This document shows positions 1 through 12,475 of a stretch of DNA of 12,475 nucleotides, piece by piece. The first letter of the stretch is position 1. The number at the start of each line of letters is the position of its first letter. The translations under genes were made by a program, and so were the position numbers. The stretch is from a virus. Taxonomy: Duplodnaviria; Heunggongvirae; Uroviricota; Caudoviricetes. The stretch spans positions 1 through 12,475 of IMG/VR virus record IMGVR_UViG_3300035034_001740; one strand, given 5' to 3'. The notes beneath the pieces were generated by a model. It made no database searches, was not told where the DNA came from, and was given only the letters and a program-made list of their open reading frames with translations.

Positions 1-1
1 C

Positions 2-130
2 AAGACTACTCACGGAGACGGAACTATCAGTCATCTCTGGCTTAACGATGGAATCTGCCAGCACCTCTCCGACTCCACGGATGGTCTAGCGGGGCAAACG
101 CTACCCCTGATTTCTTTGGAGAACGCATGA
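2..130 (+). CDS. 3' end of a small phage protein (DUF6527-like), partial; part of the high-GC segment
   Basis: My translation of frame 2, open from the window edge: KTTHGDGTISHLWLNDGICQHLSDSTDGLAGQTLPLISLENA*. It resembles the C-terminal 'CHSFxxDGxIQFLxDCTHxLAGQTVxL' pattern of DUF6527-type phage proteins (recalled, not searched). The stop TGA overlaps the next ATG (ATGA, 127-130). Confidence 0.45.
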   Translation, partial: KTTHGDGTISHLWLNDGICQHLSDSTDGLAGQTLPLISLENA

Positions 131-282
131 AGCCAGGCATCCACAACGAGCGAAGCGAGGCAGAGGATTGTCCTGCGCTGTTTTGTTCTCTCCTCGATTT
201 GTTTTGTTGCGGAGGCGGGGCTTCCGAAGGCTATTCCCGCGCCGGATTCACCGTGACGGGTGTAGACATCAAGCCACACCAA
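127..282 (+). pseudogene. N-terminal fragment of a C5-cytosine DNA methyltransferase (motif I only), fused in-frame to Thg1
   Basis: LLDLFCCGGGASEGYSRAGFTVTGVDIKP is the SAM-binding motif I (LDLFxGxGG...G..AGF.V.GVD) of phage DNA cytosine methylases. No catalytic PC motif follows. GC of 1-280 counted as 156/280 (~56%). Confidence 0.75.
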
Positions 283-909
283 ACCGATGCGTTTTTCGGT
301 GGTCAGATTCAAAAGATGTGTTCGGTTGTTGCTAGTATGGCAACTGCTAAGTTTAATGAACTTAGAAGCCGGAGATATTGGAATATTGACAGTGACATGG
401 AAGACTGGGACAAAAATAGTAAACAGATTAAGAATATTAGGGGTGAGTTCTCTGATGGGTATAATGTATTTGAACACAAAGTATGTCTGGGTGATATTGT
501 GAATTATGTTCCAAATTTGCCATTGGCGATTTTTGACGCTCGTGCGTTTAATGTTCCTAACTTTGGCGAAGTGTTGAATTATCTTCGATGGAGACAGCGT
601 GATGCTGTAAAGAACTCAATCTCTATGGTCGCACAGTCTTTGTATTCTAGTAAAGAGTTACACGGAAAGAACGGAAACGAACAACAAGAATTGATCTTCC
701 AAAAAGGCCAAAACTGGAACGATTTCAATCCTTCTGTAAAACGAGGAACCACTGTTGTCATGCGATTCGAAGAATATAACGATACTGAACACGGTAAGTA
801 TCAACGAAGGGTTTGGACTTCTGAAACTCCTGATTTATGCAAAGATGATGGTGTATCATACCTTGAAAAACATCTTCTACCTTTTTATAAACCGATTCAA
901 AACAGTTGA
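283..909 (+). CDS. thg1: tRNA-His guanylyltransferase (Thg1-like, 3'-5' polymerase), C-terminal part lacking the N-terminal catalytic motifs
   Basis: TDAFFGGQIQKMCSVVASMATAKFN, FDARAFNVP, NYLRWRQRDAVKNSISMVAQ and ELHGKN...GQNWND...KRG are Thg1/TLP motifs. The N-terminal DG..F and SDE metal-binding motifs are absent and replaced by methylase sequence. Confidence 0.85.
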   Translation, partial: TDAFFGGQIQKMCSVVASMATAKFNELRSRRYWNIDSDMEDWDKNSKQIKNIRGEFSDGYNVFEHKVCLGDIVNYVPNLPLAIFDARAFNVPNFGEVLNYLRWRQRDAVKNSISMVAQSLYSSKELHGKNGNEQQELIFQKGQNWNDFNPSVKRGTTVVMRFEEYNDTEHGKYQRRVWTSETPDLCKDDGVSYLEKHLLPFYKPIQNS

Positions 910-1183
910 AAAGAATTGTGATGGGTTGTAAGCCTGACACTTACAAGTTTACAGTTGGATATATTGAGGTAGTCAATGGTAATAGGTCGGTCATGAATGA
1001 CATAAAAATCTGGTATCCGAAGGTAAAAGACGGTGGGATATTAGCTGGATACGACTACTTTTATAGAAACTTAAGACGTAATCTTGTGGAGGTGTCACTA
1101 GCGGTAAAAGACTTTTTTACAATAAACATGATATTTATAGTACTACAGAGGATTTGCCTTCTTGGTATATCTTCAAAGATTGA
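906..1183 (+). pseudogene. Degraded class I SAM-dependent methyltransferase (Methyltransf_24-like) C-terminal remnant, frameshifted
   Basis: DIKIWYPKVKDGGILAGYDY matches the D...W.PKVK.GGILAGHDY motif. The usual YIDGxH motif is eroded and the N-terminus is missing. A -1 shift at the T6 run (1113-1118) gives YNKHDIYSTTEDLPSWYIFKD*, ending at 1183 just before the next ATG at 1189. Confidence 0.6.
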
Positions 1184-1188
1184 CTACT

Positions 1189-1383
1189 ATGAAAACTAAA
1201 ACGACACCCGAAACAAAGACTTCCGCAGAGTGGTTGCACTCCGACGAATTCAAAAATATCATTATAAAAGAACCGTTGGGGTGGGATGCTGATAACTGGA
1301 CATCGGATTTCTACGAAAATAAAATATCCCTAGAAGAGTTCACAATCAGACTTCTAAAGTCTAAGATTGAAATAATGAAATGA
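1189..1383 (+). CDS. Hypothetical phage protein (64 aa)
   Basis: ATG at 1189 (MKTKTTPETK...) is preferred over the track start at 1162 because it follows the repaired upstream stop. ATGA overlap with NUDIX. Confidence 0.7.
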   Translation: MKTKTTPETKTSAEWLHSDEFKNIIIKEPLGWDADNWTSDFYENKISLEEFTIRLLKSKIEIMK

Positions 1384-1829
1384 GAGAAGTAATATCATCA
1401 GGAATCTTAATTAAAGGGGACGACAAGTTTCTATTGTGTCACCCCACGGGAATGAAACCACACCAAGGGTGGGGAATTCCAAAAGGTAGAGTTGACCCAG
1501 GAGAATCGATTGAACAAACAGCTGTGAGAGAAACGTTCGAAGAATGTGGTTTACGTATTCCTATATCTGAGATAAAGCCCTTTCATGAAACTTCTTACAG
1601 ATCAAGTGACGAAGAAGGACCGATTCGAAAGTTTTTGAAAGTTTTTTTATATGAAACGGATGAGGATATTCAACTCAAGGAACTTGAGTGTAATTCTTAT
1701 TTCACTCCTCGTTGGGCAAAGTCTGAGAACGTCAAGGTTCTTGAAGTTGACCAATTTCGATGGGTGACACTGGATGAGGCTAAAGGTTTGGCTATGAGGT
1801 CTATAAAAAGTGTATTTGATTTATTTTAA
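1380..1829 (+). CDS. NUDIX hydrolase
   Basis: Complete Nudix box GRVDPGESIEQTAVRETFEECGL (G-x5-E-x7-RE-x-x-EE-x-G-L), preceded by WGIPKG. Confidence 0.93.
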   Translation: MREVISSGILIKGDDKFLLCHPTGMKPHQGWGIPKGRVDPGESIEQTAVRETFEECGLRIPISEIKPFHETSYRSSDEEGPIRKFLKVFLYETDEDIQLKELECNSYFTPRWAKSENVKVLEVDQFRWVTLDEAKGLAMRSIKSVFDLF

Positions 1830-1830
1830 A

Positions 1831-1860
1831 TTGACGAGTCGCAAGTCGTTGGTCTATAAT
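1831..1860 (+). promoter_or_regulatory. Sigma70-type promoter
   Basis: TTGACG (1831-1836), 18-nt spacer, TATAAT (1855-1860), in the intergenic gap. ATG follows 6 nt later at 1867. Confidence 0.7.
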
Positions 1861-1866
1861 ATTTTT

Positions 1867-2376
1867 ATGAATCAAATAGTCGAACAATTAAAGGTTTTAG
1901 ATGATGCTACTATAAGCTTAGTAATTTCGTTTTATCTAACAGCTCATGATGAGTATCAAATTGCGTTAACAATCTTAGACACTGCTCTATCAGAAGGTAA
2001 AGTATCCAGAAGTCATTTGAAAGATAGTGTAGACGTTGTTAAAAACAAACAAGAGAAGTTTAAACTTCTTGATGATATATTAATAGGGTTACACTCACTC
2101 TATAAGAAGAAGATTGAGACAATTATACGTAATGCAGAGCCTGTCTTTCGTAAAGCCGATTCTGAACGTGATGAACAAATTGCACGTGAGGAAGACAGTA
2201 TGATTGTTGAGCACCTCAGAGAACAGTATAAAAAAGAATCACAGTTTCCAGATGGTGGAATTGATAAGTCTCATGGTTCTGAAGCTGATGACTCAAGTGG
2301 AATTCTAACGAACGGCGTTTCGTCACGTTTCGTAGGGGGAGACAACACTGGAATGAACAGTTCGTTCGATCACTAA
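1867..2376 (+). CDS. Hypothetical protein (helical N-terminus, low-complexity C-terminus)
   Basis: Open frame. The start is moved from 1810 to ATG 1867 (MNQIVEQ) because 1810-1866 overlaps NUDIX and the promoter. TAATG coupling to the next gene. Confidence 0.7.
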   Translation: MNQIVEQLKVLDDATISLVISFYLTAHDEYQIALTILDTALSEGKVSRSHLKDSVDVVKNKQEKFKLLDDILIGLHSLYKKKIETIIRNAEPVFRKADSERDEQIAREEDSMIVEHLREQYKKESQFPDGGIDKSHGSEADDSSGILTNGVSSRFVGGDNTGMNSSFDH

Positions 2377-2870
2377 TGCCCGCCAAGAAAACAGTTAAGA
2401 AGAAAGCAGCCAAGAAATCAAAAGGCCCGAAGAAGTTGGGTTTGTTTGACCACTTGAATGCTGTCAAATCTGAACAAGACCCAAAATACTTTGAGAAGAT
2501 GTCTGATGAAGATAAAAAGACTTGGAGTAATTGGATGATTCTAAAAGCGTTATCGTATAACATCGATTATCTGTTTGTGGCCAATTGGGCTCAACAGATG
2601 ATTAGTCTTCCGCCTGAACACATGTATTCGGTTCTTATTGAGATCATTCCAAAACAAAGAACTTTTGATAAGTTCATCAAAGGAAAGAACGCAGATAAGT
2701 TCGACGAGGGTTTGATTGAGTTGGTGGCTCACTTTTTCTTGGTTTCTAACAAGGAAGCTTTTGACTATTTGAGTATTTTTGTATCGTGTGATGAAGGCAA
2801 AAACGACTTGATTAACATATTGGAGAAACACGGTTATACTGAAAAAGAAATTAAAAAATTGAAACTATGA
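2376..2870 (+). CDS. Sliding clamp loader small subunit (T4 gp62-like)
   Basis: LFDHLNAV...WSNWMILKALS.NID.LFVAN...PKQRTFDKFIK...LIELVAHFFLVSNKEAFDYL fits the gp62 family pattern. Lys/Ala-rich N-terminal extension. Confidence 0.75.
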   Translation: MPAKKTVKKKAAKKSKGPKKLGLFDHLNAVKSEQDPKYFEKMSDEDKKTWSNWMILKALSYNIDYLFVANWAQQMISLPPEHMYSVLIEIIPKQRTFDKFIKGKNADKFDEGLIELVAHFFLVSNKEAFDYLSIFVSCDEGKNDLINILEKHGYTEKEIKKLKL

Positions 2871-3478
2871 AGCAAAAAATAATTGGATTGACAGGTTTTG
2901 CCAGGTCTGGTAAAGATAGCTTTTACAAAATCGCTTCGGAGATTTTAAAAGAAGAATATAATTTAAAGTCTATGAGATATGCCTTAGCTGATGCTTTGAA
3001 AGCTGATACTAAGAATTTTATCTACGATAAGGTTGGGTTGGATGTTTATACAGATAATCCAGATGAGAAGTCTATTTTCCGCCCACTGTTAGTAGCATAT
3101 GGTAAGTGTAAGCGTGTTCAATCTAATGGAACGTATTGGACATCCCTTTTACAAAACAAGATTGAATTAGATACTGAAAGTGATGTAGTCTTCGTCACTG
3201 ACATTCGATATGCTGAATATGAACAGGACGAAGTTCAATGGATTAAGAATGTAATGGGTGGTGACTTAATTCATATTACGAAATATGAAGAAGATGGGTT
3301 TGGAGGAAAACTTTACATAAAACCACCCAACGACGATGAAGCTAAAAACGATCCCGTAATAAGAAGTCATGCAGATGCTTTATTTCAATGGCGCCACAGT
3401 CTAGATGCTGGTGGAGTTATGGATACAGAATACATGAAATCTGTAGTTCGTCCATTACTACAAAAAATTATGAATTAA
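2867..3478 (+). CDS. Deoxynucleoside monophosphate kinase (T4 gp1-like)
   Basis: N-terminal P-loop IIGLTGFARSGKD, plus YALADALK, RPLLVAYG and VFVTDIRY motifs. Confidence 0.88.
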   Translation: MKQKIIGLTGFARSGKDSFYKIASEILKEEYNLKSMRYALADALKADTKNFIYDKVGLDVYTDNPDEKSIFRPLLVAYGKCKRVQSNGTYWTSLLQNKIELDTESDVVFVTDIRYAEYEQDEVQWIKNVMGGDLIHITKYEEDGFGGKLYIKPPNDDEAKNDPVIRSHADALFQWRHSLDAGGVMDTEYMKSVVRPLLQKIMN

Positions 3479-3539
3479 GTATAAAAACAAAAAGACATTT
3501 GAACTCCTATATAAAGGATATTATAGAAGATTGCCCTAA

Positions 3540-3565
3540 ATAGTTATATATATGATATTTATATA
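3540..3565 (+). promoter_or_regulatory. Tandem ATAnnTATATA motif (candidate phage-specific promoter)
   Basis: ATAGTTATATA (3540-3550) and ATATTTATATA (3555-3565), the second 4 nt before ATG 3570. The same 11-mer precedes the gene starting at 11855 on the minus strand. Confidence 0.45.
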
Positions 3566-3569
3566 TGCT

Positions 3570-3899
3570 ATGAAAAGTAAAATTCAACTCGAAATTAATG
3601 AGTCGGACGTTCTCAAATCAATAGCATCTCAAAGCAAAGATGAAACATTCGACTTTGTGGATAAGATACTAAACCATTACGAATATCCGTCGGAAATTGC
3701 AGGTGAACTAATTAACCATTTAGAGGGATATATTGACAGTTATCAAAGATCCGAATATCAACACGAAATACAATCATATGTTGATGGTTCCGGTAATCTA
3801 ACTGGAAAATACAAACCCAAAGAAAAAAGGGTACAGTTAGATAAAAAACCTCGAAAGTTAGATTTTTCGAAGGATAAGCCAAGTTATTGTCTAAAATGA
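3570..3899 (+). CDS. Hypothetical protein
   Basis: Open frame. The start is probably ATG 3570 (MKSKIQ) rather than 3552, which lies inside the AT-rich motif. Confidence 0.7.
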   Translation: MKSKIQLEINESDVLKSIASQSKDETFDFVDKILNHYEYPSEIAGELINHLEGYIDSYQRSEYQHEIQSYVDGSGNLTGKYKPKEKRVQLDKKPRKLDFSKDKPSYCLK

Positions 3900-3900
3900 G

Positions 3901-3929
3901 TTGACACTGAGTTATATATTTCGTATTGT
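3901..3929 (+). promoter_or_regulatory. Sigma70-type promoter
   Basis: TTGACA (3901-3906), 17-nt spacer, TATTGT (3924-3929). ATG follows 6 nt later at 3936. Confidence 0.7.
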
Positions 3930-3935
3930 ATAACC

Positions 3936-4364
3936 ATGAGCTTCTTATTTCTTGATGACGAACGAAACCCATCCCAAGTTAAATGGGGTGTAGATATCGT
4001 AGGTGCATGTGGTCAATTTGATTTGCCACCCGCTCCTTGGGATATTGTGTGTAACTATGATGAATTCGTAAAGTATATTGATACGAAAGGAGTACCTGTG
4101 TGGGTTGCGTTCGACCACGACTTGGCGGATGAACATTATCGTAAATCCATGTATGATCCAGACAAACATTACAGCGATTACTACACAGACGGTACTTTCA
4201 AAGAGAAGACAGGCAAGTCTTGTGCCGATTATCTAGTTCAATATTGTGTCGATAATAAGTTGAAACTGCCTGAACAAATGTTCATACACTCTATGAATCC
4301 AATTGGAAGGGAAAATATCCAAAGTGTATTTAAATCCGCGAAACGAACCTTTGACTTTTTATAA
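3936..4364 (+). CDS. Cyclic-phosphate processing receiver (cREC) domain protein
   Basis: LFLDDER.P, NYDEFVKYI, AFDHDL, KTG..CA.YL and IHSMNPIGRENI match the cREC/REC-like family linked to RNA end processing. Confidence 0.8.
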   Translation: MSFLFLDDERNPSQVKWGVDIVGACGQFDLPPAPWDIVCNYDEFVKYIDTKGVPVWVAFDHDLADEHYRKSMYDPDKHYSDYYTDGTFKEKTGKSCADYLVQYCVDNKLKLPEQMFIHSMNPIGRENIQSVFKSAKRTFDFL

Positions 4365-4365
4365 T

Positions 4366-4482
4366 ATGAAAATTCCAAGAGAATTAATCGATAAACAAAT
4401 CGAGCCGCGCTTATTGGGTTACTCTGACTCCGAACGTGGCAAACTGCGACTTCAAGTTAGGAAAATGTATCACGCTATATAA
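4366..4482 (+). CDS. Small hypothetical protein (38 aa), not in the ORF track
   Basis: MKIPRELIDKQIEPRLLGYSDSERGKLRLQVRKMYHAI*. It starts 1 nt after the cREC stop, and its TAA overlaps the next ATG (TAATG), filling the gap exactly. Confidence 0.6.
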   Translation: MKIPRELIDKQIEPRLLGYSDSERGKLRLQVRKMYHAI

Positions 4483-5204
4483 TGAACTTCTTAGATTACA
4501 GTGAAGAGATACATTATCCGATTTATTTGCAGTTGTGTACACAACCAGCAACTAACGAATTGTTCAGGTCGACGATTGACAATTTTCACTCATATGTAAA
4601 TTTTGTTTCAAGCCCAACACGCAATCTCCGTTGGTTAATCTACCAAACCGACAATAATAAGTTGTTAGGTGCTATTGGTTTATCAAGTTGTGTATTGGCT
4701 ATCAAATGCCGTGATGATTATATTGGTTGGTCTAAAGATTCACGATTGAAAAACAGTAACAAGGTCGCCAACAATTCAAGATTTTGTTTAATTCCAAATG
4801 CTACTGATATGAAAAATGTTGGGAGCATGGCTTTACGTCTGTTAAGAACGGATGGAGCTACAGAATGGAAACGTCGTTATGGTGATGACCTCATTGGAAT
4901 TGAAACTTATATTGAACCCATTGCAGATGGTGACTTGTATCGTAGCGGAACAGTCTACAAAGCTGATAATTGGACATACATGGGAATGACGAGTGGTAAT
5001 AGTATACGAAAAGCTCCATTGAGACTCTGGAAACAGGAAGATAGCGCAAGAGGAAAATTGGCTCGTCAGAATCCCGAAGCAGCTTGTGAGAAATACGGTT
5101 ACAATAAACAGGGATATGTAGTTAAAGATTCCAAACCGAAAATGGTATTTTTTAAACCGCTCACGAAAAAATGGAGAAACGAATTGTTGAATTATGAGGA
5201 TTGA
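4482..5204 (+). CDS. DUF4338/DruA-family protein (Mom-like, putative GNAT fold)
   Basis: FHSY...RNLRWLI...LLGAIGLSS...RDDYIGW...NNSRFCLIP...W..RYG...IETY...G.VYKADNWTYMGMTSG reproduces the DUF4338 motif series. No other Druantia genes are present in the window. Confidence 0.8.
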   Translation: MNFLDYSEEIHYPIYLQLCTQPATNELFRSTIDNFHSYVNFVSSPTRNLRWLIYQTDNNKLLGAIGLSSCVLAIKCRDDYIGWSKDSRLKNSNKVANNSRFCLIPNATDMKNVGSMALRLLRTDGATEWKRRYGDDLIGIETYIEPIADGDLYRSGTVYKADNWTYMGMTSGNSIRKAPLRLWKQEDSARGKLARQNPEAACEKYGYNKQGYVVKDSKPKMVFFKPLTKKWRNELLNYED

Positions 5205-5254
5205 GTCTGAACTTGAATTTTGTGAGAACTATATAACGACTAATATAAAAACTA

Positions 5255-5506
5255 ATGAAAATTGATTTATACCCACTTGATATGTTGACAATACCACAGT
5301 TGAAGCTTTGGTTTCGATTGTTTTGTAACTTATTTAAACGGAAGGCAAATGCAAAACCGACTAGGTTATATTACCCAAGACACAATAAATCATTGTCGGT
5401 TGAAGTTATTAAAGTCACTGACTATTCGGTAGAATACAAATCTAGTGGAACGATAAAAACTAGATCCCGAAAAGGATTTGAAAAGAGTTATCTGCCGATT
5501 AAGTGA
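5255..5506 (+). CDS. Hypothetical protein
   Basis: 83-aa ORF with an A-rich upstream region. Its stop abuts the convergent gene with no gap. Confidence 0.6.
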   Translation: MKIDLYPLDMLTIPQLKLWFRLFCNLFKRKANAKPTRLYYPRHNKSLSVEVIKVTDYSVEYKSSGTIKTRSRKGFEKSYLPIK

Positions 5507-6157
5507 TTAATCATACTTACAAGGTATATCCTCGAAATCCAGATCGAATTGTTCACAGATATCCATACATTTCAGCCAAGCTGATTTAGCTTCTTGTGGG
5601 TTGTCGGATTTTGATAATTGTTTTAACTTCTTTAATTTGGCGAACATTCCAGAATCCATGTTCTGATAAATATATTTATCCATATGAGGAACTCTCTCAC
5701 CTGTATCGAAATCGTCAATTCCATCCGCATGGTTTTCCGATAAGTCATTAAGTTCGTCAATGTCTACTTCAATCTTAGATTCATAATCAGATTGAAGGTT
5801 TCCATACTTTTCTTCATAGAGCTTTTTCAATTCGGAGACATCTTCGATTTGTTCACCGTATTCTCCTGTTAGGAAATATAACATGTTCAAAATAGGCGTG
5901 TGAACAGTCGGCATGAATTCGTTACTGTCTTTAAAGAACTCTTCTGCTTCTAGAGTCCCTTCTCTAATACCAGCATTCTCTAACATCAATTGACGTTTTC
6001 GTGTTCCTCTTTCAATATCTTTAGCATATTTCTTACTGTATTCTGCTGCTGTGGAATCTAAACTTTGTTTTGACTTTTTGGTTTCCTCTTTGGCTTCTTT
6101 TAAACTTTCGAAACAGAAGTCATTTTTCATTAAATCTATAAGTGAGTAATTATTCAT
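5507..6157 (-). CDS. Acidic protein with C-terminal DUF2786-like helical domain
   Basis: MFAKLKKLKQLSKSDNPQEAKSAWLKCMDICEQFDL fits DUF2786 (.KI.KL..LA.S.N..EA..A..KA..L...). The remainder is D/E-rich. Confidence 0.6.
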   Translation of the reverse strand: MNNYSLIDLMKNDFCFESLKEAKEETKKSKQSLDSTAAEYSKKYAKDIERGTRKRQLMLENAGIREGTLEAEEFFKDSNEFMPTVHTPILNMLYFLTGEYGEQIEDVSELKKLYEEKYGNLQSDYESKIEVDIDELNDLSENHADGIDDFDTGERVPHMDKYIYQNMDSGMFAKLKKLKQLSKSDNPQEAKSAWLKCMDICEQFDLDFEDIPCKYD

Positions 6158-6175
6158 AATTTTTTAGTTTCTTTG

Positions 6176-6192
6176 TATATATGTATATATAT
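6176..6192. promoter_or_regulatory. Bidirectional AT-repeat containing ATAnnTATATA on both strands between divergent genes
   Basis: Plus strand ATATGTATATA (6179-6189), 3 nt before ATG 6193. Minus strand ATACATATATA (6186-6176), 18 nt before ATG 6157. Confidence 0.4.
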
Positions 6193-6459
6193 ATGAGAGA
6201 TGTTAAAAAGTTACGCAAGAGGGTTGAAAAATGTATTTTCTGTGGTGAGAATGATAAGGTTGTATTGGATGTACACCGAATCAATGAGGGTTATAAAGGC
6301 GGAGAATACACGTTGGAGAATAGTCTAACTACGTGCAGCAATTGTCACCGAAGGGTTCACCACAGTGGACGTTATAAAATAGATGGTTGGGTTATGACCA
6401 CCGGCGGTTTACGACTACACTGCTGGATTGACGAAGAGGAACAATATCTCAAGAGGTAA
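6193..6459 (+). CDS. Small HNH endonuclease (zinc-binding)
   Basis: CIFC...DVHRI...GG.Y..EN..TTCSNCHRRVH gives CxxC / H / N / CxxCH..H. The start is probably ATG 6193 (6181 lies in the AT repeat). Confidence 0.85.
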   Translation: MRDVKKLRKRVEKCIFCGENDKVVLDVHRINEGYKGGEYTLENSLTTCSNCHRRVHHSGRYKIDGWVMTTGGLRLHCWIDEEEQYLKR

Positions 6460-7042
6460 TTTGAGAAGACACTTTGGGTAACATATAGTCATCAATCGAT
6501 ATATCAGAAGGTTTAGTATGAACCACCTTTTTTATAATTTCAGGGTTGTGAATTACCAACCATTCTTCTTCACCTGACTGAGATTGTAACGAAGCGTCAA
6601 CACCGTGTTCTACTACAAACTTCATAACCTCCATAGCTTGTTTACCGCCAATTTCTAAATTCACACTCATGTTCAACATTATGAATGCTGGAAGTCTACC
6701 CATACGGTCATATGATTTTTGAATTGCATCTAAAAAGTCTCGTCGGTTCTTGGTTCCAATATATAACTTGACAAAGTTAACAGCATCTTCTATGGGAATA
6801 TCAACTGCGTCCGCTAGAGTAATATCTTTATCGACATATACAATGGATACAACATTCGAACCACGGCCATATTTCTGTGCGGTTTCATAATTTGTTGTCG
6901 TATAAATCCCAGCACCCGCTTCATACCTTCCTTTTTTTGGTGCTGATACTGAAGCATCCCATCTACTCCATTTTTTACCGCCGTGATATACTTTAATGTA
7001 ATCCTCAACGGATTCATTTAAAATTGATTTTAATTTTATCAT
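6449..7042 (-). CDS. ADP-ribosyltransferase-like protein (H-Y-E type) with N-terminal MIKLKSILNE tag
   Basis: VYHG (beta1 His), GAGIYTTTNYETAQKY (G.GIY.T...A..Y) and EEEWLVIHNP (late Glu strand) match ART-fold motifs. Confidence 0.65.
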   Translation of the reverse strand: MIKLKSILNESVEDYIKVYHGGKKWSRWDASVSAPKKGRYEAGAGIYTTTNYETAQKYGRGSNVVSIVYVDKDITLADAVDIPIEDAVNFVKLYIGTKNRRDFLDAIQKSYDRMGRLPAFIMLNMSVNLEIGGKQAMEVMKFVVEHGVDASLQSQSGEEEWLVIHNPEIIKKVVHTKPSDISIDDYMLPKVSSQITS

Positions 7043-8304
7043 TATCGTTTCACCAATTGTAACAACTCTTCTTTGGAGACGTTTGGGTTCTCTTCAAATA
7101 CATCTTGAATTTTATCCAAAATCTGTTTGAACTCAGGTCCGGATTTCATCCCCATCTTAATCAAATCTTGTCCACTCACAGGTGGTTTGATTGGAGTTGA
7201 TTTCATCTGCTGTAATCGATCTCTGATTTTATCTACATCAACGGATAGGTTGAGGTCGTCAATCAACTGTAGAGTAACGTCAGCGTTCTTGCCAGCGATC
7301 CGTCTAAACTGACGAATACGCTTATCCGACTCACCGTTATTGAAAAATGATTGTAAAGTAACCGCGTTAGCAATCTTACCAACAACATCGTTGGGGTATT
7401 TCAATCTCTTTAGAATCGCTTCGATTTGACCCTTTGAAAGATCGTGGAATAGTATAGCAATCTTAACTCTTGGGTCAGACGCCTTTTGAATAAGATTCAT
7501 CTTTTCAGTAGTAATCTCAACTTCAGGAAACATTGACTTGTTTAGACCTGAGTTTTTGATTAACTTCAAAGCACGCCCTGCGTTATCAGTCTTGAGAATC
7601 TTGTCAAACTCATCTTGAATACGTTCATTTGAGATATTCTTCAACTGATCCGCGTTACGCTTTAATGCCTTCAAAGTATTAAGAGGAATCTTCCAATTGT
7701 ATTTAACAAAAAACCGAATCAGACGTAACATACGAAGTGGATCATCAGCAAAAGTCTTGTCAGGGTCTAAAGGAGTTCTAGCAATACCTTTCTCAAGGTC
7801 ATCCCTTCCTCTTCCTGTCAAGTCAACAATTTCGCCGGTTGATACGTTCTTGAATAAACTGTTAGCAGTCAAATCTCGTCGTTCCGCATCTGCTTTCAAT
7901 GACGCACCTTGAACTTCGGGTTTTCTGTTTCCAGGTTCATATTTTTCGGATCGTGGAGCAACAGTTTCGATATCAATCTCAGATAAGTCTTCCCCTTTGT
8001 AATTTACTTTACGCAAGTTAAACTTGGCGGTTCCGTATGTTGGAAATACGATTGGGTTACTTCCTTCTTTGAAGTTACCCATTTGTTTAGTTGCCCAATC
8101 AGCGAATTTCAGTCCGCCTTCGGGCATATCAACAACCAAGTCAATATCCTTAATAGGTTTGCCCATCAATTCATCACGTACAGCTCCTCCGGCTATGTAC
8201 ACTTTGTTTTCAAACTCACTTCCTTTGATAAGGTTCTTGAGGTATTCAACTGATAGAGTTTCTTTCAACCCTTCATTTATTAAGCTTTTAAGTTTAATGT
8301 TCAT
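7042..8304 (-). CDS. cca: CCA tRNA nucleotidyltransferase (class II) with N-terminal MNIKLKSLINE tag
   Basis: Motif A YIAGGAVRD...KDIDL, flexible loop RSEKYEPGNRKPEV, RRDLTANSL, template motif DDPLRMLRLIRF and ISNERIQDEFDKIL. No HD domain and no obvious poly(A)-polymerase signature. Confidence 0.9.
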   Translation of the reverse strand: MNIKLKSLINEGLKETLSVEYLKNLIKGSEFENKVYIAGGAVRDELMGKPIKDIDLVVDMPEGGLKFADWATKQMGNFKEGSNPIVFPTYGTAKFNLRKVNYKGEDLSEIDIETVAPRSEKYEPGNRKPEVQGASLKADAERRDLTANSLFKNVSTGEIVDLTGRGRDDLEKGIARTPLDPDKTFADDPLRMLRLIRFFVKYNWKIPLNTLKALKRNADQLKNISNERIQDEFDKILKTDNAGRALKLIKNSGLNKSMFPEVEITTEKMNLIQKASDPRVKIAILFHDLSKGQIEAILKRLKYPNDVVGKIANAVTLQSFFNNGESDKRIRQFRRIAGKNADVTLQLIDDLNLSVDVDKIRDRLQQMKSTPIKPPVSGQDLIKMGMKSGPEFKQILDKIQDVFEENPNVSKEELLQLVKR

Positions 8305-8735
8305 CTTGTATCTTTGTAAAAATTGCTACGGGAATTTTTACTTTATCTATGTAAAGTGTGAATCGTTCGTTTTTCTTTAAAATTCGTTGTAAAACATTAT
8401 GTAGAGCTAATGTGCGGTGTCGTCCCTCTTGATTTCCGTTTGGTGCTATAATTGGCATTGGAAATTGGTCATCTTCATTGTTCTGTAATATAGTTATAAA
8501 TCTTTTTCATATTTTTCAAGTAAATTCTTGTCTACACCCCTTATTTCTTCTGATCTAGTAGTATTTCGGTTACGGGCGGACAATCTGATATACTCATCTG
8601 GTCTAATACGGATGATTTCAGTTGTTATCCCCTTTCGTTCTGCATACTGTTCAGAAGTTCATCATACATTGGCATATCAGTTGTCGAATCGCTGATCATA
8701 GAATTCAATCTATTGACTAATTCGGGATATGTCAT
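8294..8735 (-). pseudogene. ParB/Srx-like domain gene interrupted by two frameshifts (missed by the ORF track)
   Basis: The ATG at 8735 overlaps the DUF5661 stop (TAATG). Segments: MTYPELVNRLNSMISDSTTDMPMYDELL (that frame stops at 8627-8625); -1 frame EQYAERKGITTEIIRIRPDEYIRLSARN...KNLLEKYEK (stop 8496-8494); a further -1 frame RFITILQNNEDDQFPMPIIAPNGNQEGRHRTLAL...IQDEH* (stop 8296-8294, overlapping the cca start). EGRHR resembles the ParB DGxHR motif. Confidence 0.65.
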
Positions 8736-8989
8736 TACGGTGTATTTTGATTTTCCATATCTGCTAACCTACTGTAATAATCTGACATTTCATACAGATG
8801 ATCCAACGCGATTTCTTCAGCAACGTTGCGGTCATCTGTGTGTTCCATTTCAACTTCAATACCAGCTTCTAATTCAGCTTGGACGTTTGATACGTCAACA
8901 TTGTGTTTGTCTGCTATGTCTTGAATAGAGTGGCTGTCGGCAATTCCTCCGTCCAGAATTTCTTCCATAATTTTTTTTATTCTGATCAT
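8735..8989 (-). CDS. DUF5661-family small acidic protein with N-terminal MIRIKKIMEE tag
   Basis: GIEVEMEHTDD...AEEIALDHLYE..DYYSRL..ME matches the DUF5661 pattern. Confidence 0.75.
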   Translation of the reverse strand: MIRIKKIMEEILDGGIADSHSIQDIADKHNVDVSNVQAELEAGIEVEMEHTDDRNVAEEIALDHLYEMSDYYSRLADMENQNTP

Positions 8990-9375
8990 GAGTTTAAATA
9001 GTTTGCTATATCTTTTAAATTTTTACAAATTTTAGCGCCGTTCTTATGAACCATTTTCACTGTCGCTATTAATGATTTCAATTCATCGTCTTGGAATGTT
9101 TTGGAATCATATGTCTTTAAAACACAAAAAATGGTTTTCTGTGGTTTCGTGTTGCTATCTTGAACAGCTTCAGCGATGCTGTACACACCTTTCATTTGTG
9201 GGGTGATTACATACAAAACAAAGTCGCTGTTTTCTCTAGCTTCCAACTCTCTTTGGTAATCATCTTCAGTCCAATCGTCAACGACTGGATTAAAATAATC
9301 AACTTTTAACATTGGAATCAATTCCTCACGCCAAGTCGAATCGTTACAGGTTCCTCCTAAGAATACTTTTTTCAT
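8986..9375 (-). CDS. Nucleoside 2-deoxyribosyltransferase-like (NDT fold) protein
   Basis: VFLGGTCN.STWRE...DYFNPVVDDW...E...RE.SD..LYVITP...GVYSIAEA, with the conserved Glu in SIAE. Confidence 0.8.
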   Translation of the reverse strand: MKKVFLGGTCNDSTWREELIPMLKVDYFNPVVDDWTEDDYQRELEARENSDFVLYVITPQMKGVYSIAEAVQDSNTKPQKTIFCVLKTYDSKTFQDDELKSLIATVKMVHKNGAKICKNLKDIANYLNS

Positions 9376-9917
9376 TTTACTAATTGTGTTTCTATTTTTA
9401 TATTTGGGTATTTAGATTTTAAAGTGTCGACTGATTCGATGTTTTTATGAGAGTCGTCGTAAAATATCACATACTTTATATTTGGATTTGTTCTAATTTG
9501 AGTTTCAATCCAATTCTTTTTATCGTTCGGGTCAGAACTATTGAGAGTTATCAACTCAACACTATTTCCTATTTTTAGGCTTCTAATAAATCTCAAAATT
9601 GATTTTCTAGCGCCAACTCCCCGAGCTGTTAATATAACATTCCTATGACCGTCATTACTTCTCAAGTGTTTAATGAATATTCTCATAATGTGTCGAATGT
9701 GAGTAGGGTCTTTAACCGATTCGAAATCTGAGTAGTCCATAGTATCTCCATCCTCCTTAGAATATACAGAATATTGGCTAGGGGATAGTTTTAATCTTTT
9801 GCCGTTTTCTTTAGTTACGTATACAAAAGATCTCGTTTTGACGAGCGTATCATCAAAATCAAAAACTCTTAAATGTTTCTCATACGATTCGTTTATTATG
9901 TTTTTTAACAATTTCAC
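9372..9917 (-). CDS. HAD-family phosphatase (Swiss-Army-knife RNA-repair / PNK 3'-phosphatase-like) with N-terminal MKLLKNIINE tag
   Basis: HAD motif I VFDFDDTL, motif II ILTAR, a Lys in DKK and motif IV FYDDS..NI. GTG start. Confidence 0.78.
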   Translation of the reverse strand: MKLLKNIINESYEKHLRVFDFDDTLVKTRSFVYVTKENGKRLKLSPSQYSVYSKEDGDTMDYSDFESVKDPTHIRHIMRIFIKHLRSNDGHRNVILTARGVGARKSILRFIRSLKIGNSVELITLNSSDPNDKKNWIETQIRTNPNIKYVIFYDDSHKNIESVDTLKSKYPNIKIETQLVK

Positions 9918-10606
9918 TTTACTCTTTCTATAAATACTTCTAAATGGTCTTTTGTGAAAAACTTTAATGGGTCAGCTCTGGAATCTGCATCTGACATACT
10001 AAACTCCTTGTCTTTCCCTTGTCTTCCCATCATCTGTCTCATTTCTTTTTTGGCTGAATGTGCATTTCTAACGAAAGCGTGTAAATAAGTTTCCATGTCA
10101 GTTTTTACCCAAGAACCTTTTTCTGTTAATATTTTTTTGGGTGGAACAAACTCTTTATGGTGATGCCAAATCTCACCTGAGTATTTGAATCTCCTAGGGT
10201 GAACTTTTTTTACAAGAGCATGATGTTTGTCGTCATGCCAAAATTCACCATCTTCATCTGGTTCTGCTCCATTTTTAAGACCGGTTTCGACAGACCATAT
10301 ATTATCGTTATCGTCATACTTGTTAAAGTCTGGATGTTCATCTGTTATTTTCTTTCCGTCCTTATCTTTTACGTAGACCAATCGATTTGAGGCGTCTTTT
10401 TTCTTTGGATTTCCGTAACCCCCACCCAACAGAAATGTTTCAATGTAACCTTTGGGAAAGGCGTAAATTCCTTTCCTAGTAGGTGGGCTATGGAAACCAT
10501 CGAAATTCGGATTATACCCTTTCTGTTTCACGGGAGATAGTCCGCCGAACCGAACAAACTCACCGACCGACTTTCCTTCTGTAAGTATCTGTTTTAATTT
10601 AATCAT
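9914..10606 (-). CDS. Hypothetical protein with N-terminal MIKLKQILTE tag
   Basis: Intact 230-aa ORF coupled on both sides (ATGA/GTGA overlaps). RFGG and FHSPPTRKGIYAFP motifs, family not confidently recognised. Confidence 0.75.
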   Translation of the reverse strand: MIKLKQILTEGKSVGEFVRFGGLSPVKQKGYNPNFDGFHSPPTRKGIYAFPKGYIETFLLGGGYGNPKKKDASNRLVYVKDKDGKKITDEHPDFNKYDDNDNIWSVETGLKNGAEPDEDGEFWHDDKHHALVKKVHPRRFKYSGEIWHHHKEFVPPKKILTEKGSWVKTDMETYLHAFVRNAHSAKKEMRQMMGRQGKDKEFSMSDADSRADPLKFFTKDHLEVFIERVK

Positions 10607-11187
10607 CCTCTTCTAACCGACTTCATCATAGCCACTAAATTTTTACCTCTGTATCCCACTTGTTGATACCAATCTGAATCTACCATTTCATTAGCAGCTC
10701 GTTTGAAATCATTTTGTGCTACGGCGGCTCTCATATTTTTAAATTTTGATAATCTGGTTTTTCCCAAATTGAAACTCATATCGATAATAACTTTTCTAAC
10801 GTCTTTAGGCAATTTTTGAAAATTAGGAAACAGATCAACAGCATCTTTGTATGCTAATCTAAGAGAGAAGTTATATAATACATAAACATCTCTTTTTGAT
10901 AACGGTATTTTACTAACAATCTTTTGTTTGATTTCTGGATTACGATCAAGAAACTTTCTATTAGTTTCGGAATCTAAGTTAAACCCGACTCCGATAGTTG
11001 GATGTCCATGTGTATCCATATACACTGTATCACGAAAACCTTCATGTCGTTCAATTTGACTATATAGTTCTACAGGATCAATCTTCTCAGCTCTATTAGC
11101 AAAAGAAGGCAACGCTGAAGCAGCAGCCATGGTTCCCATAGTTATAGCATTCTTCAATTTACCTTCTTGTAATTTTTCAGCAATCAT
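10603..11187 (-). CDS. T4-type lysozyme (GH24) with N-terminal extension
   Basis: Catalytic triad E-x8-D-x5-T in HEGFRDTVYMDTHGHPTIG, plus MSFNLG and AANEMVDSDWYQQV. Confidence 0.92.
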   Translation of the reverse strand: MIAEKLQEGKLKNAITMGTMAAASALPSFANRAEKIDPVELYSQIERHEGFRDTVYMDTHGHPTIGVGFNLDSETNRKFLDRNPEIKQKIVSKIPLSKRDVYVLYNFSLRLAYKDAVDLFPNFQKLPKDVRKVIIDMSFNLGKTRLSKFKNMRAAVAQNDFKRAANEMVDSDWYQQVGYRGKNLVAMMKSVRRG

Positions 11188-11855
11188 AATCCAGCTTTGT
11201 GTAATTGTTCTATTGTGTTTGGGGTTGACGTGTGAATGATACCCATACCACCGGCCTCAACGAACAGTTTGACATTCTTTTCCATGTCATCAATTAGTAA
11301 GTCGCCTTCTTTAGCGAATTCCCACTTGTCTTTGCCTGAGTTTACAATGTTGAACTTCAAACCTCCAAGTCCAGCTTTTTGTAACCACGCTTGTTTACCT
11401 CTATCGGCATATCCACCCGCACCAGCGGTTAAGATTTCGATTGGGATGTTTAAAGACCTAAGATACTTTACTAGCTCTTTTCCTCCGTCTTGCCAATCCA
11501 TATCAGACCAATAGTTTTCTTGGCCTTTCATTAGAACGTCCCACGCTGGAGACATAGTAAAGTTCTTTCTAAATTGGTCGCCAACAATACCATAGACATC
11601 AACTTCGCCTGAGTCTAAAATCTTGTTTCTCAAATCCGTGGCGGACTTCACGAATTCGGGACGTTCCATGTTGAGATTATCCAACTTTCGTTGTGAGATA
11701 GCCTTTCTATAATTAACCACAGAGTTCCAAATACTGTCGTTGGCTAGATACTTTCGATATTGCTTACTGAAGTCGCAAATCACTCCATCCATATCAAGAG
11801 CAATCCGCTTTACAGTGGTCGCATTCTCCGTTAGTAAGTATTTCATCTTAATCAT
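11184..11855 (-). CDS. 5'(3')-deoxyribonucleotidase (NT5C-type HAD) with N-terminal MIKMKYLLTE tag
   Basis: IALDMDGVICDF, ILTA, GKQAWL and LLIDDMEKN....EAGG.GIIH motifs. Confidence 0.85.
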   Translation of the reverse strand: MIKMKYLLTENATTVKRIALDMDGVICDFSKQYRKYLANDSIWNSVVNYRKAISQRKLDNLNMERPEFVKSATDLRNKILDSGEVDVYGIVGDQFRKNFTMSPAWDVLMKGQENYWSDMDWQDGGKELVKYLRSLNIPIEILTAGAGGYADRGKQAWLQKAGLGGLKFNIVNSGKDKWEFAKEGDLLIDDMEKNVKLFVEAGGMGIIHTSTPNTIEQLHKAGL

Positions 11856-11857
11856 CT

Positions 11858-11868
11858 TATATAAATAT
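11858..11868 (-). promoter_or_regulatory. ATATTTATATA motif heading the minus-strand operon
   Basis: Reverse complement of TATATAAATAT, 2 nt upstream of ATG 11855. Identical to the 11-mer at 3555-3565. Confidence 0.45.
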
Positions 11869-11887
11869 CGAATTATGTTTTTTTATG

Positions 11888-11916
11888 TTGACTACACAAA
11901 AGATAGATATCATAGT
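11888..11916 (+). promoter_or_regulatory. Possible sigma70-type promoter
   Basis: TTGACT (11888-11893), 17-nt spacer, CATAGT (11911-11916), upstream of ATG 11926. The -10 box is imperfect. Confidence 0.4.
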
Positions 11917-11925
11917 ATATAAATT

Positions 11926-12204
11926 ATGGAAGATCAAGTTAAAAAGAGTCGGTTCAAGGTAGCATTTTCAGAAGTCGCTGGTAGAGTGGCTATTGTAGAT
12001 AAAAATTCCGAAGAAGATGTTGAAACCTTTTCTGACAATGTACCTGAAGAGTTACTTGTTCAACGAATGATGGAAATCCGTGAGGATGAATTGTTTAGAG
12101 ATCAAATTATCAAAGGAACCTCCTTAGATACTAATATATCAGATGGTGGTATCATTGTTCCAGGAAGAGAGCCGTTACACGATAACGGAAATATTATAGT
12201 TTAA
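11926..12204 (+). CDS. Hypothetical acidic protein
   Basis: 92-aa ORF upstream of groES, with C-terminal DGGIIVPG. Confidence 0.7.
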   Translation: MEDQVKKSRFKVAFSEVAGRVAIVDKNSEEDVETFSDNVPEELLVQRMMEIREDELFRDQIIKGTSLDTNISDGGIIVPGREPLHDNGNIIV

Positions 12205-12222
12205 ACCAAAAATAAAATAATT

Positions 12223-12475
12223 ATGAGTAAAGAAAAATTAGTTCCAGTTGGACCACGGTTGTTGATACAACCCGTCGTAGATGAAGGTGAACAACAACTC
12301 GGAGGAATTATCATCCCCGACGCTGTTCGAAATGAGAAGGTAAACAAGTCAACAGTCGTTGCTGTTGGTGAAGGGTATCGAAACGAAAAGGGTGAGAACA
12401 TTGCTCTATCGATTCAGGTCGGTGATGTTGTTATTACGTCTAAAATGAGTGGGACTGAGGTTAAGTTCGATGGCA
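12223..12475 (+). CDS. groES: Co-chaperonin GroES (Cpn10), partial at the window end; not in the ORF track
   Basis: My translation: MSKEKLVPVGPRLLIQPVVDEGEQQLGGIIIPDAVRNEKVNKSTVVAVGEGYRNEKGENIALSIQVGDVVITSKMSGTEVKFDG. It has the mobile loop GGIIIP and the VVAVGEG, VGDVV and GTEVK motifs. Confidence 0.95.
   Translation, partial: MSKEKLVPVGPRLLIQPVVDEGEQQLGGIIIPDAVRNEKVNKSTVVAVGEGYRNEKGENIALSIQVGDVVITSKMSGTEVKFDG

Follow-up and report, generated by a model that had tools for sequence, protein, structure and literature searches.

In bacteriophage T4, the prohead protease gp21 cuts after Glu and takes the N-terminal propeptides off gp23, gp24 and Alt as well as off the internal proteins (PMC5694885; PMC7697877; PMC3012670). 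Before its removal, a capsid-targeting sequence (CTS) of about 10 residues recruits these internal proteins to the scaffolding core (PMC7697877; PMC3012670), and it is sufficient for loading foreign proteins (PMC7697877). Alt is processed at ITE-6 (PMC5694885). Here we describe a stretch of 12,475 nucleotides (nt) of a Caudoviricetes virus (IMG/VR record IMGVR_UViG_3300035034_001740, positions 1 to 12,475; hereafter the window), in which otherwise unrelated proteins of a minus-strand gene block begin with the decapeptide M-I-K-L-K-x-I-L-x-E or a close variant of it (hereafter the tag). Judging from sequence comparisons, this decapeptide is probably a capsid-targeting propeptide of the T4 type, removed after its Glu by the prohead protease.

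The principle of the T4 internal-protein CTS has reportedly been known since 1996, from work by Mullaney and Black. In encapsulins, a short terminal cargo-loading peptide likewise sends diverse enzymes into an HK97-fold shell; the likeness is one of working only, with no homology, and the encapsulin peptides differ in being usually C-terminal and uncleaved and in serving a cellular compartment with no delivery. Iyer and colleagues are said to have described, in 2017, polyvalent proteins of phages and conjugative elements that are thought to be delivered together with the DNA against host defences. Polyvalent proteins have domains that overlap those found here (ART-PolyVal, Zeta toxin, lysozyme/peptidase and nucleases), and a fusion of a lysozyme to a tRNA nucleotidyltransferase of the CCA-adding type (CCA enzyme), found among the CCA homologues (P0016), is alike; but they are giant and multi-domain, whereas here separate small proteins of 84-420 amino acids (aa), with one domain each, carry their own tag. 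In giant phages of the phiKZ type (phiKZ, SPN3US), the prohead takes up many proteins of the head interior, enzymes among them, which are trimmed after Glu at a three-residue motif and ejected into the host (PMC5694885). They differ from the present case in their S80 protease, their A/S/G-x-E motif, their long propeptides in place of one shared decapeptide, and their lineage.

The tag opens six proteins of one minus-strand block

The window covers the first 12.5 kb of a linear IMG/VR contig (G000) of 76,475 bp. The completeness of this contig is 23% (CheckV), and the whole genome is therefore probably about 330 kb. The plus strand holds nearly all contig genes; the block 6449-11855 lies on the minus strand and consists of two tightly coupled runs, from 11855 to 8735 and from 8304 to 6449, in which neighbours overlap by 1-4 nt. 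The gene for an ADP-ribosyltransferase-like (ART-like) protein is coupled to the CCA gene through TAATG. In the translations of the open reading frames (ORFs), the tag opens six of the eight block proteins, which are the following (tags as read from the translation).

11184..11855, minus strand: the operon's first gene, for a 223-aa protein resembling 5'-nucleotidases of the HAD superfamily; Pfam matches to NT5C and Hydrolase, each below cut-off
11826-11855, minus strand: tag of the NT5C/HAD gene, MIKMKYLLTE, then N
10603..11187, minus strand: phage lysozyme, 194 aa, N-terminus MIAEKLQE, then G; Pfam Phage_lysozyme 7.7e-8
9914..10606, minus strand: 230-aa protein (unk230), no Pfam family
10577-10606, minus strand: tag of the 230-aa protein, MIKLKQILTE, then G
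9372..9917, minus strand: HAD-like DUF2608 protein, 181 aa, GTG start; Pfam DUF2608 9.4e-6
9888-9917, minus strand: tag of the DUF2608/HAD protein, MKLLKNIINE, then S
8986..9375, minus strand: nucleoside 2-deoxyribosyltransferase-like protein, 129 aa, an untagged operon member with the N-terminus MKKVFLGG; Pfam Nuc_deoxyri_tr2 2.8e-13
8735..8989, minus strand: DUF5661 protein, 84 aa; Pfam DUF5661 8.9e-17, from residue 23
8960-8989, minus strand: tag of the DUF5661 protein, MIRIKKIMEE, then I
7042..8304, minus strand: tRNA nucleotidyltransferase, CCA-adding type (class II), 420 aa; Pfam PolyA_pol, PolyA_pol_RNAbd and tRNA_NucTran2_2, domain from residue 35
8272-8304, minus strand: tag of the CCA enzyme, MNIKLKSLINE, then G
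6449..7042, minus strand: ART-like protein, 197 aa; weak Pfam ART-PolyVal match (1.2e-3, below cut-off)
7013-7042, minus strand: tag of the ART-like protein, MIKLKSILNE, then S

The first-pass annotation, made from the window alone, had described a shared start on unrelated enzymes, and this was confirmed for the six proteins, whose Pfam families are unrelated or absent. The Glu is residue 10 in five of them, as had been noted, and residue 11 in the CCA enzyme. A shorter form of the tag had also been assigned to the lysozyme. We did not accept this assignment: MIAEKLQE fits the tag poorly, a hydrophobic segment typical of exported or membrane-tethered endolysins follows it, and the lysozyme orthologue in the related contig L230, the closest relative with several orthologues, has no tag. 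The placement of the peptide ahead of each catalytic domain held for all proteins except the DUF2608 protein, in which the Pfam match starts at residue 4, though the FDFDD motif comes after the tag; in the NT5C/HAD protein, a DxD motif lies after residue 20. Synonymous codons vary among the copies and the 45 nt upstream are unlike, and the conservation is therefore at the protein level, in agreement with the earlier claim. It ends directly behind the Glu.

When the whole contig was scanned with a regular expression for the tag, only block genes matched among 1970 candidate starts, and plus-strand genes gave 0 matches; the first-pass annotation had likewise seen no clear match among the plus-strand replication genes. 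A looser match (MEITLKQLLLE, then I) opens a minus-strand gene outside the window (contig 20807-21247, 146 aa, GTG start, locus L373); this further gene apart, the tag was absent from the other ~115 contig ORFs, and it is carried by only about 6% of the contig's genes. The exact DNA pattern of the tag occurred 2 times in the window, against 0.00 expected from window shuffles.

The tag is viral and is found on many unrelated proteins

IMG/VR was scanned with a back-translated, exact M-I-K-L-K-x-I-L-x-E pattern, the matches to which are a lower bound. At least 120 contigs with 134 sites were found, and 114 sites (85%) were clean ORF starts among the matches listed, to which the counts below refer. 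With the tag removed beforehand, the listed proteins formed at least 74 clusters unrelated by BLAST. The Glu at position 10 was imposed by the search pattern itself. Residue 6, which was free in the pattern, was Asp or Asn at about two thirds of the listed sites; Leu outnumbered Phe by 117:4 where the pattern permitted both; residues 11-15 were unconserved and synonymous codons variable. The same scan of 596 Gb of bacterial and archaeal genomes gave 120 listed matches, 16 of which (13%) resemble ORF starts; the listed cellular matches showed no Asp/Asn preference, and several of the 16 ORF-start cases resemble phage contigs in metagenome-assembled or single-amplified genomes. By the matches listed, the tag is restricted to viruses. 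In the fetched loci, a broader regular expression matched 8-11% of ORF N-termini versus 0.16% of internal Met.

Pfam searches with 20 representatives assigned tagged proteins to ADPrib_exo_Tox, Zeta toxin, M23 peptidase and tail lysozyme, RNase T-type exonuclease, NUDIX, RimK ATP-grasp, tyrosine recombinase and DUF5824. In a complete 365-kb genome, G037, the tagged proteins comprise, among others, a lysozyme, several GNATs and a phosphoesterase that resembles 2H/Acb1 and scores just under the Pfam cut-offs. One very common tagged family has a YH-T motif resembling the window's ART-like protein, and ART-like proteins are the commonest tagged cargo. There is strong overlap between this cargo list and the proteins whose injection by other phages is established or presumed.

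Tagged ART-like paralogues of the YH-T type are common and occur also in the cultured Microcystis phage Mel-JY01 (PP395634; L145 4277-7100), in which an array of tagged ISDRVWH-T paralogues begins with MIKLKSLLQE, MIKLKSLLKE and MIKLMSLVTE; stop codons disrupt a fourth copy, at 6734. In PP395634, intact genes with the tag lie at 60276, 60923 and 62056. Among GenBank phages, a DNA search with the operon gave only short weak matches, to Lak and other huge phages, and tblastn with the ART-like protein and with a common tagged family of 118 aa gave no match. The MIKLK-type pattern was not found in Pelagibacter phage HTVC008M, Methylophilales phage Melnitz, Flavobacterium phage immuto or two huge uncultured phages. 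Searches of IMG/VR for close relatives of the window via single proteins (unk230, the CCA enzyme and a 499-aa protein) returned none, or one short contig.

The tag varies independently of the enzyme that carries it

Nine close relatives in the family of the 230-aa protein are fully tagged, a group has a 9-residue form (MIKLKxI[ILM]E, then G), and many members are untagged and begin directly at the conserved F-[VI]-R-[FY]-G-G-L-S core. The tag or a close variant is present on most of the best 120 CCA homologues; it is lacking from phage CCA enzymes at a greater distance, whose start lies 10-12 residues further on. DUF2608 homologues in other phage contigs also begin directly at the domain. The NT5C and ART orthologues in L230 are tagged (the latter with 52% identity to the window's ART-like protein), and the NT5C/HAD orthologues in L230 and in a second related contig, L375, have the 9-residue form MIKLKxLIE. 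Since tagged and untagged orthologues coexist, the tag is a modular add-on, whose gain, loss and exchange do not depend on the enzyme. The CCA domain of the 735-kb phage LR756501 lies within a 1233-aa protein (L149:3730-7431), and this protein and three of its neighbours carry a different tag, MIxKFKLFE. Each phage lineage has its own version of the tag, with a common x-Glu end.

Fusions of the CCA domain were also seen, with a phage lysozyme domain in P0016 (651 aa) and with GNAT domains in P0071 and P0118; they echo the lysozyme-CCA-GNAT neighbourhoods of G037 and L146 described below.

The tag ends like a gp21 cleavage site and occurs in genomes with an S77 protease

The tags of the window end in LTE, LTE, INE, MEE, INE and LNE, that is, in Leu/Ile/Met-x-Glu, a match at the level of sequence only. 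T4 gp24 starts with MAKINELLRE, then S, and T4 gp23 is cut at FLTE, then A. The gp24 propeptide has the same length as the tag and is identical to MIKLKSILNE at M1, K3, L8 and E10 (4/10) and similar at positions 4 and 7; gp24, unlike the tagged proteins, forms part of the shell and is no cargo. The tag lies closer to this propeptide than to the T-even CTS, to which it has no sequence homology, only Met, an early Lys, hydrophobic residues at 7-8 and Glu 10 being in common. The tag would be a functional analogue or a distant variant of the T-even CTS, and not a member of the same sequence family.

Peptidase_S77 is the family of T4 gp21. It was present in all five pattern-found records of at least 79% completeness, in 8 of 22 fragments (5.8 expected from the summed completeness at one copy per genome) and in 8 of 8 complete CCA-bearing phages reached via CCA homologues. 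All 13 near-complete genomes examined (at least 79%; five found by the tag and eight by CCA homologues) thus have S77, and among genomes complete enough the tag occurred only together with this protease. As a discriminator of tagged and untagged CCA-bearing large phages, S77 was tried and rejected, because all complete ones have it.

The capsid proteins of tag-bearing phages are of the gp23 type, with Flavobacterium phage immuto, Microcystis phage Mel-JY01, Rhodothermus phage RM378 and a number of huge uncultured phages as the nearest relatives. Of the contig's 124 ORFs, 30 are shared with G037, and the contig encodes a T4-type clamp-loader A subunit; by relatedness, the phage of the window presumably has a gp21-type protease itself. 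A Gp23 family search on five small related contigs gave no match, and the control genomes gave none either. Prediction of a complex between the S77 protease of G002 (L125:6052-6654), another tag-bearing relative, and the first 45 residues of the neighbouring tagged protein gave a score of 0.01, which carries no weight either way.

Tagged genes lie in the head modules of relatives

In G002, the portal gene is followed, in this order, by genes for small core-like proteins, the S77 protease, a basic protein, two tagged proteins, the scaffold and the major capsid protein (MCP). In G023, the protease gene is followed directly by a tagged gene. In the 223-kb contig L146, two ART-like genes with the tag come after scaffold and MCP, and gp13 is adjoined by tagged genes for a lysozyme-like protein and a CCA enzyme. 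The 365-kb genome G037 has 33 ORFs that match the tag expression, in two flavours, MIKLKxLLxE and MKKSQLKxLIKE; 20 of the 33 fall into a block of 65 kb that reaches from terminase to tail sheath and makes up 18% of the genome (binomial 5e-8, although the genes are clustered). A run of a tagged lysozyme, a tagged CCA gene, GNATs and a 2H enzyme is located between the MCP and a gp13-like gene; tagged lysozymes adjoin tagged CCA genes in both G037 and L146. Whether tagged genes are head-associated had been posed as a check of the original prediction: they are in G002, G023, L146 and G037, and they are not in the window's own lineage, where their neighbours are metabolic and they occupy the minority strand. 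In L375 (CCA 63% identical) and L230 (52%), the operon is surrounded by the Thg1/cREC/DruA/NUDIX genes that also surround it in the window and is on the strand opposite to theirs, and synteny with L375 indicates that the tRNA-repair neighbourhood is conserved.

The second flavour, MKKSQLKxLIKEI, is found on about ten proteins of G037 (L232-L250; for example at 343723, 357613, 29730 and 284162), including that of the gene directly behind the prohead protease. Similar leaders occur on small head-module proteins of G002 and L146. A single phage may employ a pair of related tags.

A promoter-like motif precedes the operon

One feature was found directly upstream of the operon.

11860..11893, minus strand: bipartite promoter-like motif, AGTCAACATA-N16-TATTTATA, with the TATTTATA element at 11860-11867 and 4 nt (TAAG) between the motif's end and the operon's first ATG

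The same arrangement of AGTCAACATA and TATTTATA lies upstream of the contig's only other tagged gene (20807-21247), and ATATTTATA is found 3-5 nt ahead of the tagged-operon leader in L230 and of tagged leaders in G037. The operon's upstream element resembles the T4 late promoter, TATAAATA. In G037, TATTTATA or TATAAATA occurred within 45 nt upstream of 11 of 71 structural-block genes versus 18 of 486 genes elsewhere (p = 3.6e-4). Upstream of the 134 listed IMG/VR tagged genes, no enrichment of TATAAATA, of Shine-Dalgarno or of Bacteroidetes -7 elements was found, and TATTTATA was slightly enriched (16% vs 10%). A promoter role of the TATTTATA element is only suggestive. Because the operon lies outside the structural module in the window's lineage, its late expression is suggested only by the strand and by this promoter-like motif.

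Further features of the window and the contig

The AlphaFold2 model of the 230-aa protein (predicted local distance difference test, pLDDT, 82) places the tag in a short separate helix. Invariant in the family are H39, P41, P42, F50, W147, H149 and L-E-V-F at 222-225. A Foldseek search of the model against the PDB gave no match. With VIA-align, the best rows reached only Z 2.1-2.6; several of them were DarT or OspC3/CopC, and we rejected these as names for the fold, such scores being far too weak. An ART-like fold of very divergent kind is at most a lead.

The two runs of the block are separated by a gap of 430 nt (8305-8734, minus strand) between the DUF5661 and CCA genes, with stops throughout all three frames; searches of this gap for intact ORFs of at least 60 aa, for tRNAs and for Rfam matches gave nothing. 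The gap could be the remnant of a gene, or else a regulatory spacer dividing the block into two transcription units. The window as a whole was scanned for tRNA genes and Rfam families, and none were found; sigma-70 and terminator scans did not rise above shuffled sequence. The neighbours of the block are as follows.

127-909, plus strand: weak Thg1-like protein
2376-2870, plus strand: T4-type clamp-loader A subunit
3936-4364, plus strand: cREC receiver domain
4482-5204, plus strand: DruA/Mom-like protein
5507-6157: untagged downstream gene, N-terminus without the tag
6181-6459, plus strand: HNH endonuclease, located between the operon and the gene 5507-6157
12223-12474, plus strand: GroES homologue

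A second recurrent N-terminal peptide, MK[IV]KH[TNI][RQ]H[NK], opens otherwise unrelated small plus-strand proteins of the contig (34873, 44236, ~57580, 59943, 71369 and 70454). An exact-pattern scan of IMG/VR found it in contig G000 only.

Discussion

The tag resembles the CTS of the T4 internal proteins IPI, IPII and IPIII in being an N-terminal peptide of about 10 residues on otherwise unrelated, fast-evolving accessory proteins, in its hydrophobic-x-Glu end and in its occurrence in phages whose protease is of the gp21 type and whose capsid is of the gp23 type; the cargo of T4, too, includes counter-defence proteins. It differs in sequence (MIKLKxILxE versus the MKTYQEFIAE quoted by the first-pass annotation) and in its cargo, which is far broader (at least 74 families, mostly enzymes, including the CCA-adding enzyme and HAD phosphatases), and it spans a large uncultured clade with genomes of 145-370 kb. 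T4 Alt is a packaged ADP-ribosyltransferase (PMC5694885), and the commonest tagged proteins are ART-like; the propeptide of Alt has 6 residues, and the ART-like proteins here are small and resemble the H-Y-E / ART-PolyVal type (a weak match). Relative to T4, the new elements are this tag, its spread over an uncultured clade, the size of the cargo repertoire and a tagged CCA-adding enzyme, none of which was found in the searchable literature. Literature searches with the literal tag strings and with Mel-JY01 returned nothing; papers on capsid-targeting sequences, judged mainly from titles and abstracts, reported no such tags in uncultured phages; and no virion-delivered or tagged CCA-adding enzyme was found in the searchable literature.

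We infer core binding, cleavage, retention in the virion and injection of the tagged proteins, as follows. At the N-terminus, the tag would fold into a short amphipathic helix through which the protein docks to the scaffolding core during prohead assembly; a prohead protease of the gp21 type (S77) would then cut after the Glu (P3 Leu/Ile/Met, P1 Glu), and the mature enzyme would be retained in the head and exit with the DNA at infection. The six tagged enzymes of the window would act in the host ahead of phage gene expression, plausibly in tRNA or nucleotide repair and in counter-defence. The proposal of a capsid-targeting tag, already made in the first-pass annotation, gained from the modularity of the tag, its viral restriction, its occurrence in S77 genomes and in the head modules of relatives and its hydrophobic-x-Glu end; it lost its lysozyme example, which is doubtful, and it must accommodate the position of the window's own operon among metabolic genes.

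Several further points weigh against capsid targeting. The lineage of the window (G000, L375, L230) places the operon among tRNA-repair and nucleotide genes, not structural ones, and the 76-kb fragment (23% complete) carries no protease, scaffold or capsid gene. The tag is dispensable: the CCA and 230-aa orthologues in L230 are untagged, and their untagged starts are not a gene-calling artefact, because stop codons lie upstream. In the DUF5661 orthologues of L230 and L375, the tag is degenerate and its Glu is lost. S77 is also found in CCA-bearing phages whose CCA locus shows no tag, and the protease is therefore not a discriminating marker. One tagged IMG/VR protein with a predicted membrane segment and one integrase are odd cargo. 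The literature, as far as it could be searched, holds no experiment on packaging or cleavage of a protein with this tag, and no virion proteome was found in it for any tag-bearing phage.

Four other explanations were weighed, all of which fit fewer observations than capsid targeting. The tag may be a propeptide, removable or partner-binding, that involves no delivery and serves as a timing switch, holding the enzymes inactive up to the appearance of the head protease, as a handle for a cytoplasmic complex or as a means of using the enzymes merely as disposable filler of the prohead core. The hydrophobic-x-Glu end and the link to S77 fit cleavage equally well as packaging, and the operon of the G000 lineage is outside the structural module; we nevertheless consider this explanation unlikely, as a 10-residue helix would hardly inhibit so many unrelated folds, the cargo (ART, Zeta toxin, lysozyme/M23) corresponds to proteins whose injection is known from other phages, and the comparable T4 tag retains intact proteins in the head (PMC7697877). 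It is improbable, too, that the tag directs proteins to the membrane, the periplasm or another phage-made compartment. Such a destination would suit an amphipathic peptide, the hydrophobic N-terminal region of the operon lysozyme and the membrane-like segment of the one tagged IMG/VR protein, but for a signal peptide the tag has too few residues and too much charge; its carriers include nucleic-acid enzymes of the cytoplasm (CCA, NUDIX, RNase T, integrase), tagged genes cluster with those of head and neck, and the tag ends in a gp21 site.

The two remaining explanations assign no function to the peptide. A/T-rich unstructured initiation in a non-Shine-Dalgarno host, or re-initiation, could account for A/T-rich codons, for operon genes that overlap by 4 nt and for the lack of a visible Shine-Dalgarno upstream. 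The codon data contradict this reading, to which we give very little credence: synonymous codons are free to vary, including C/G-containing Leu codons, Leu is preferred to Phe by 117:4, conservation stops at Glu10 and the free position 6 favours Asp/Asn. Moreover, the tag is on about 6% of the contig's genes and on none of the plus strand, and other phage lineages use other peptides with the same x-E end. There is a similarly slim chance that the tag is a scar of recombination, in which gene starts served as crossover points for the shuffling of accessory genes, as proposed for T-even internal-protein loci. Tagged genes are indeed accessory, occur in arrays and are gained and lost among relatives; yet thirty nt with variable codons and unconserved flanks are a poor substrate for homologous recombination, and the protein-level conservation spans very distant phages.

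If the tag does work as in T4, the injected proteins of thousands of uncultured genomes would be readable from sequence. It is possible, although we stop just short of expecting it, that this address label defines the injected proteome of a large and abundant uncultured clade of the T4 superfamily, and that here the CCA enzyme, two HADs and ART-like enzymes are delivered together with the DNA as a pre-loaded repair and counter-defence kit, before phage gene expression. The tag would then point to enzymes of first-minute takeover and counter-defence, such as ADP-ribosyltransferases, Acb1-like phosphodiesterases, nucleases and tRNA-repair enzymes like the CCA enzyme, and would offer a natural, portable means of putting foreign proteins into the capsids of non-model phages. 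The internal-protein strategy of T4 would be general and greatly expanded in large aquatic phages, and not a peculiarity of the T-even phages.

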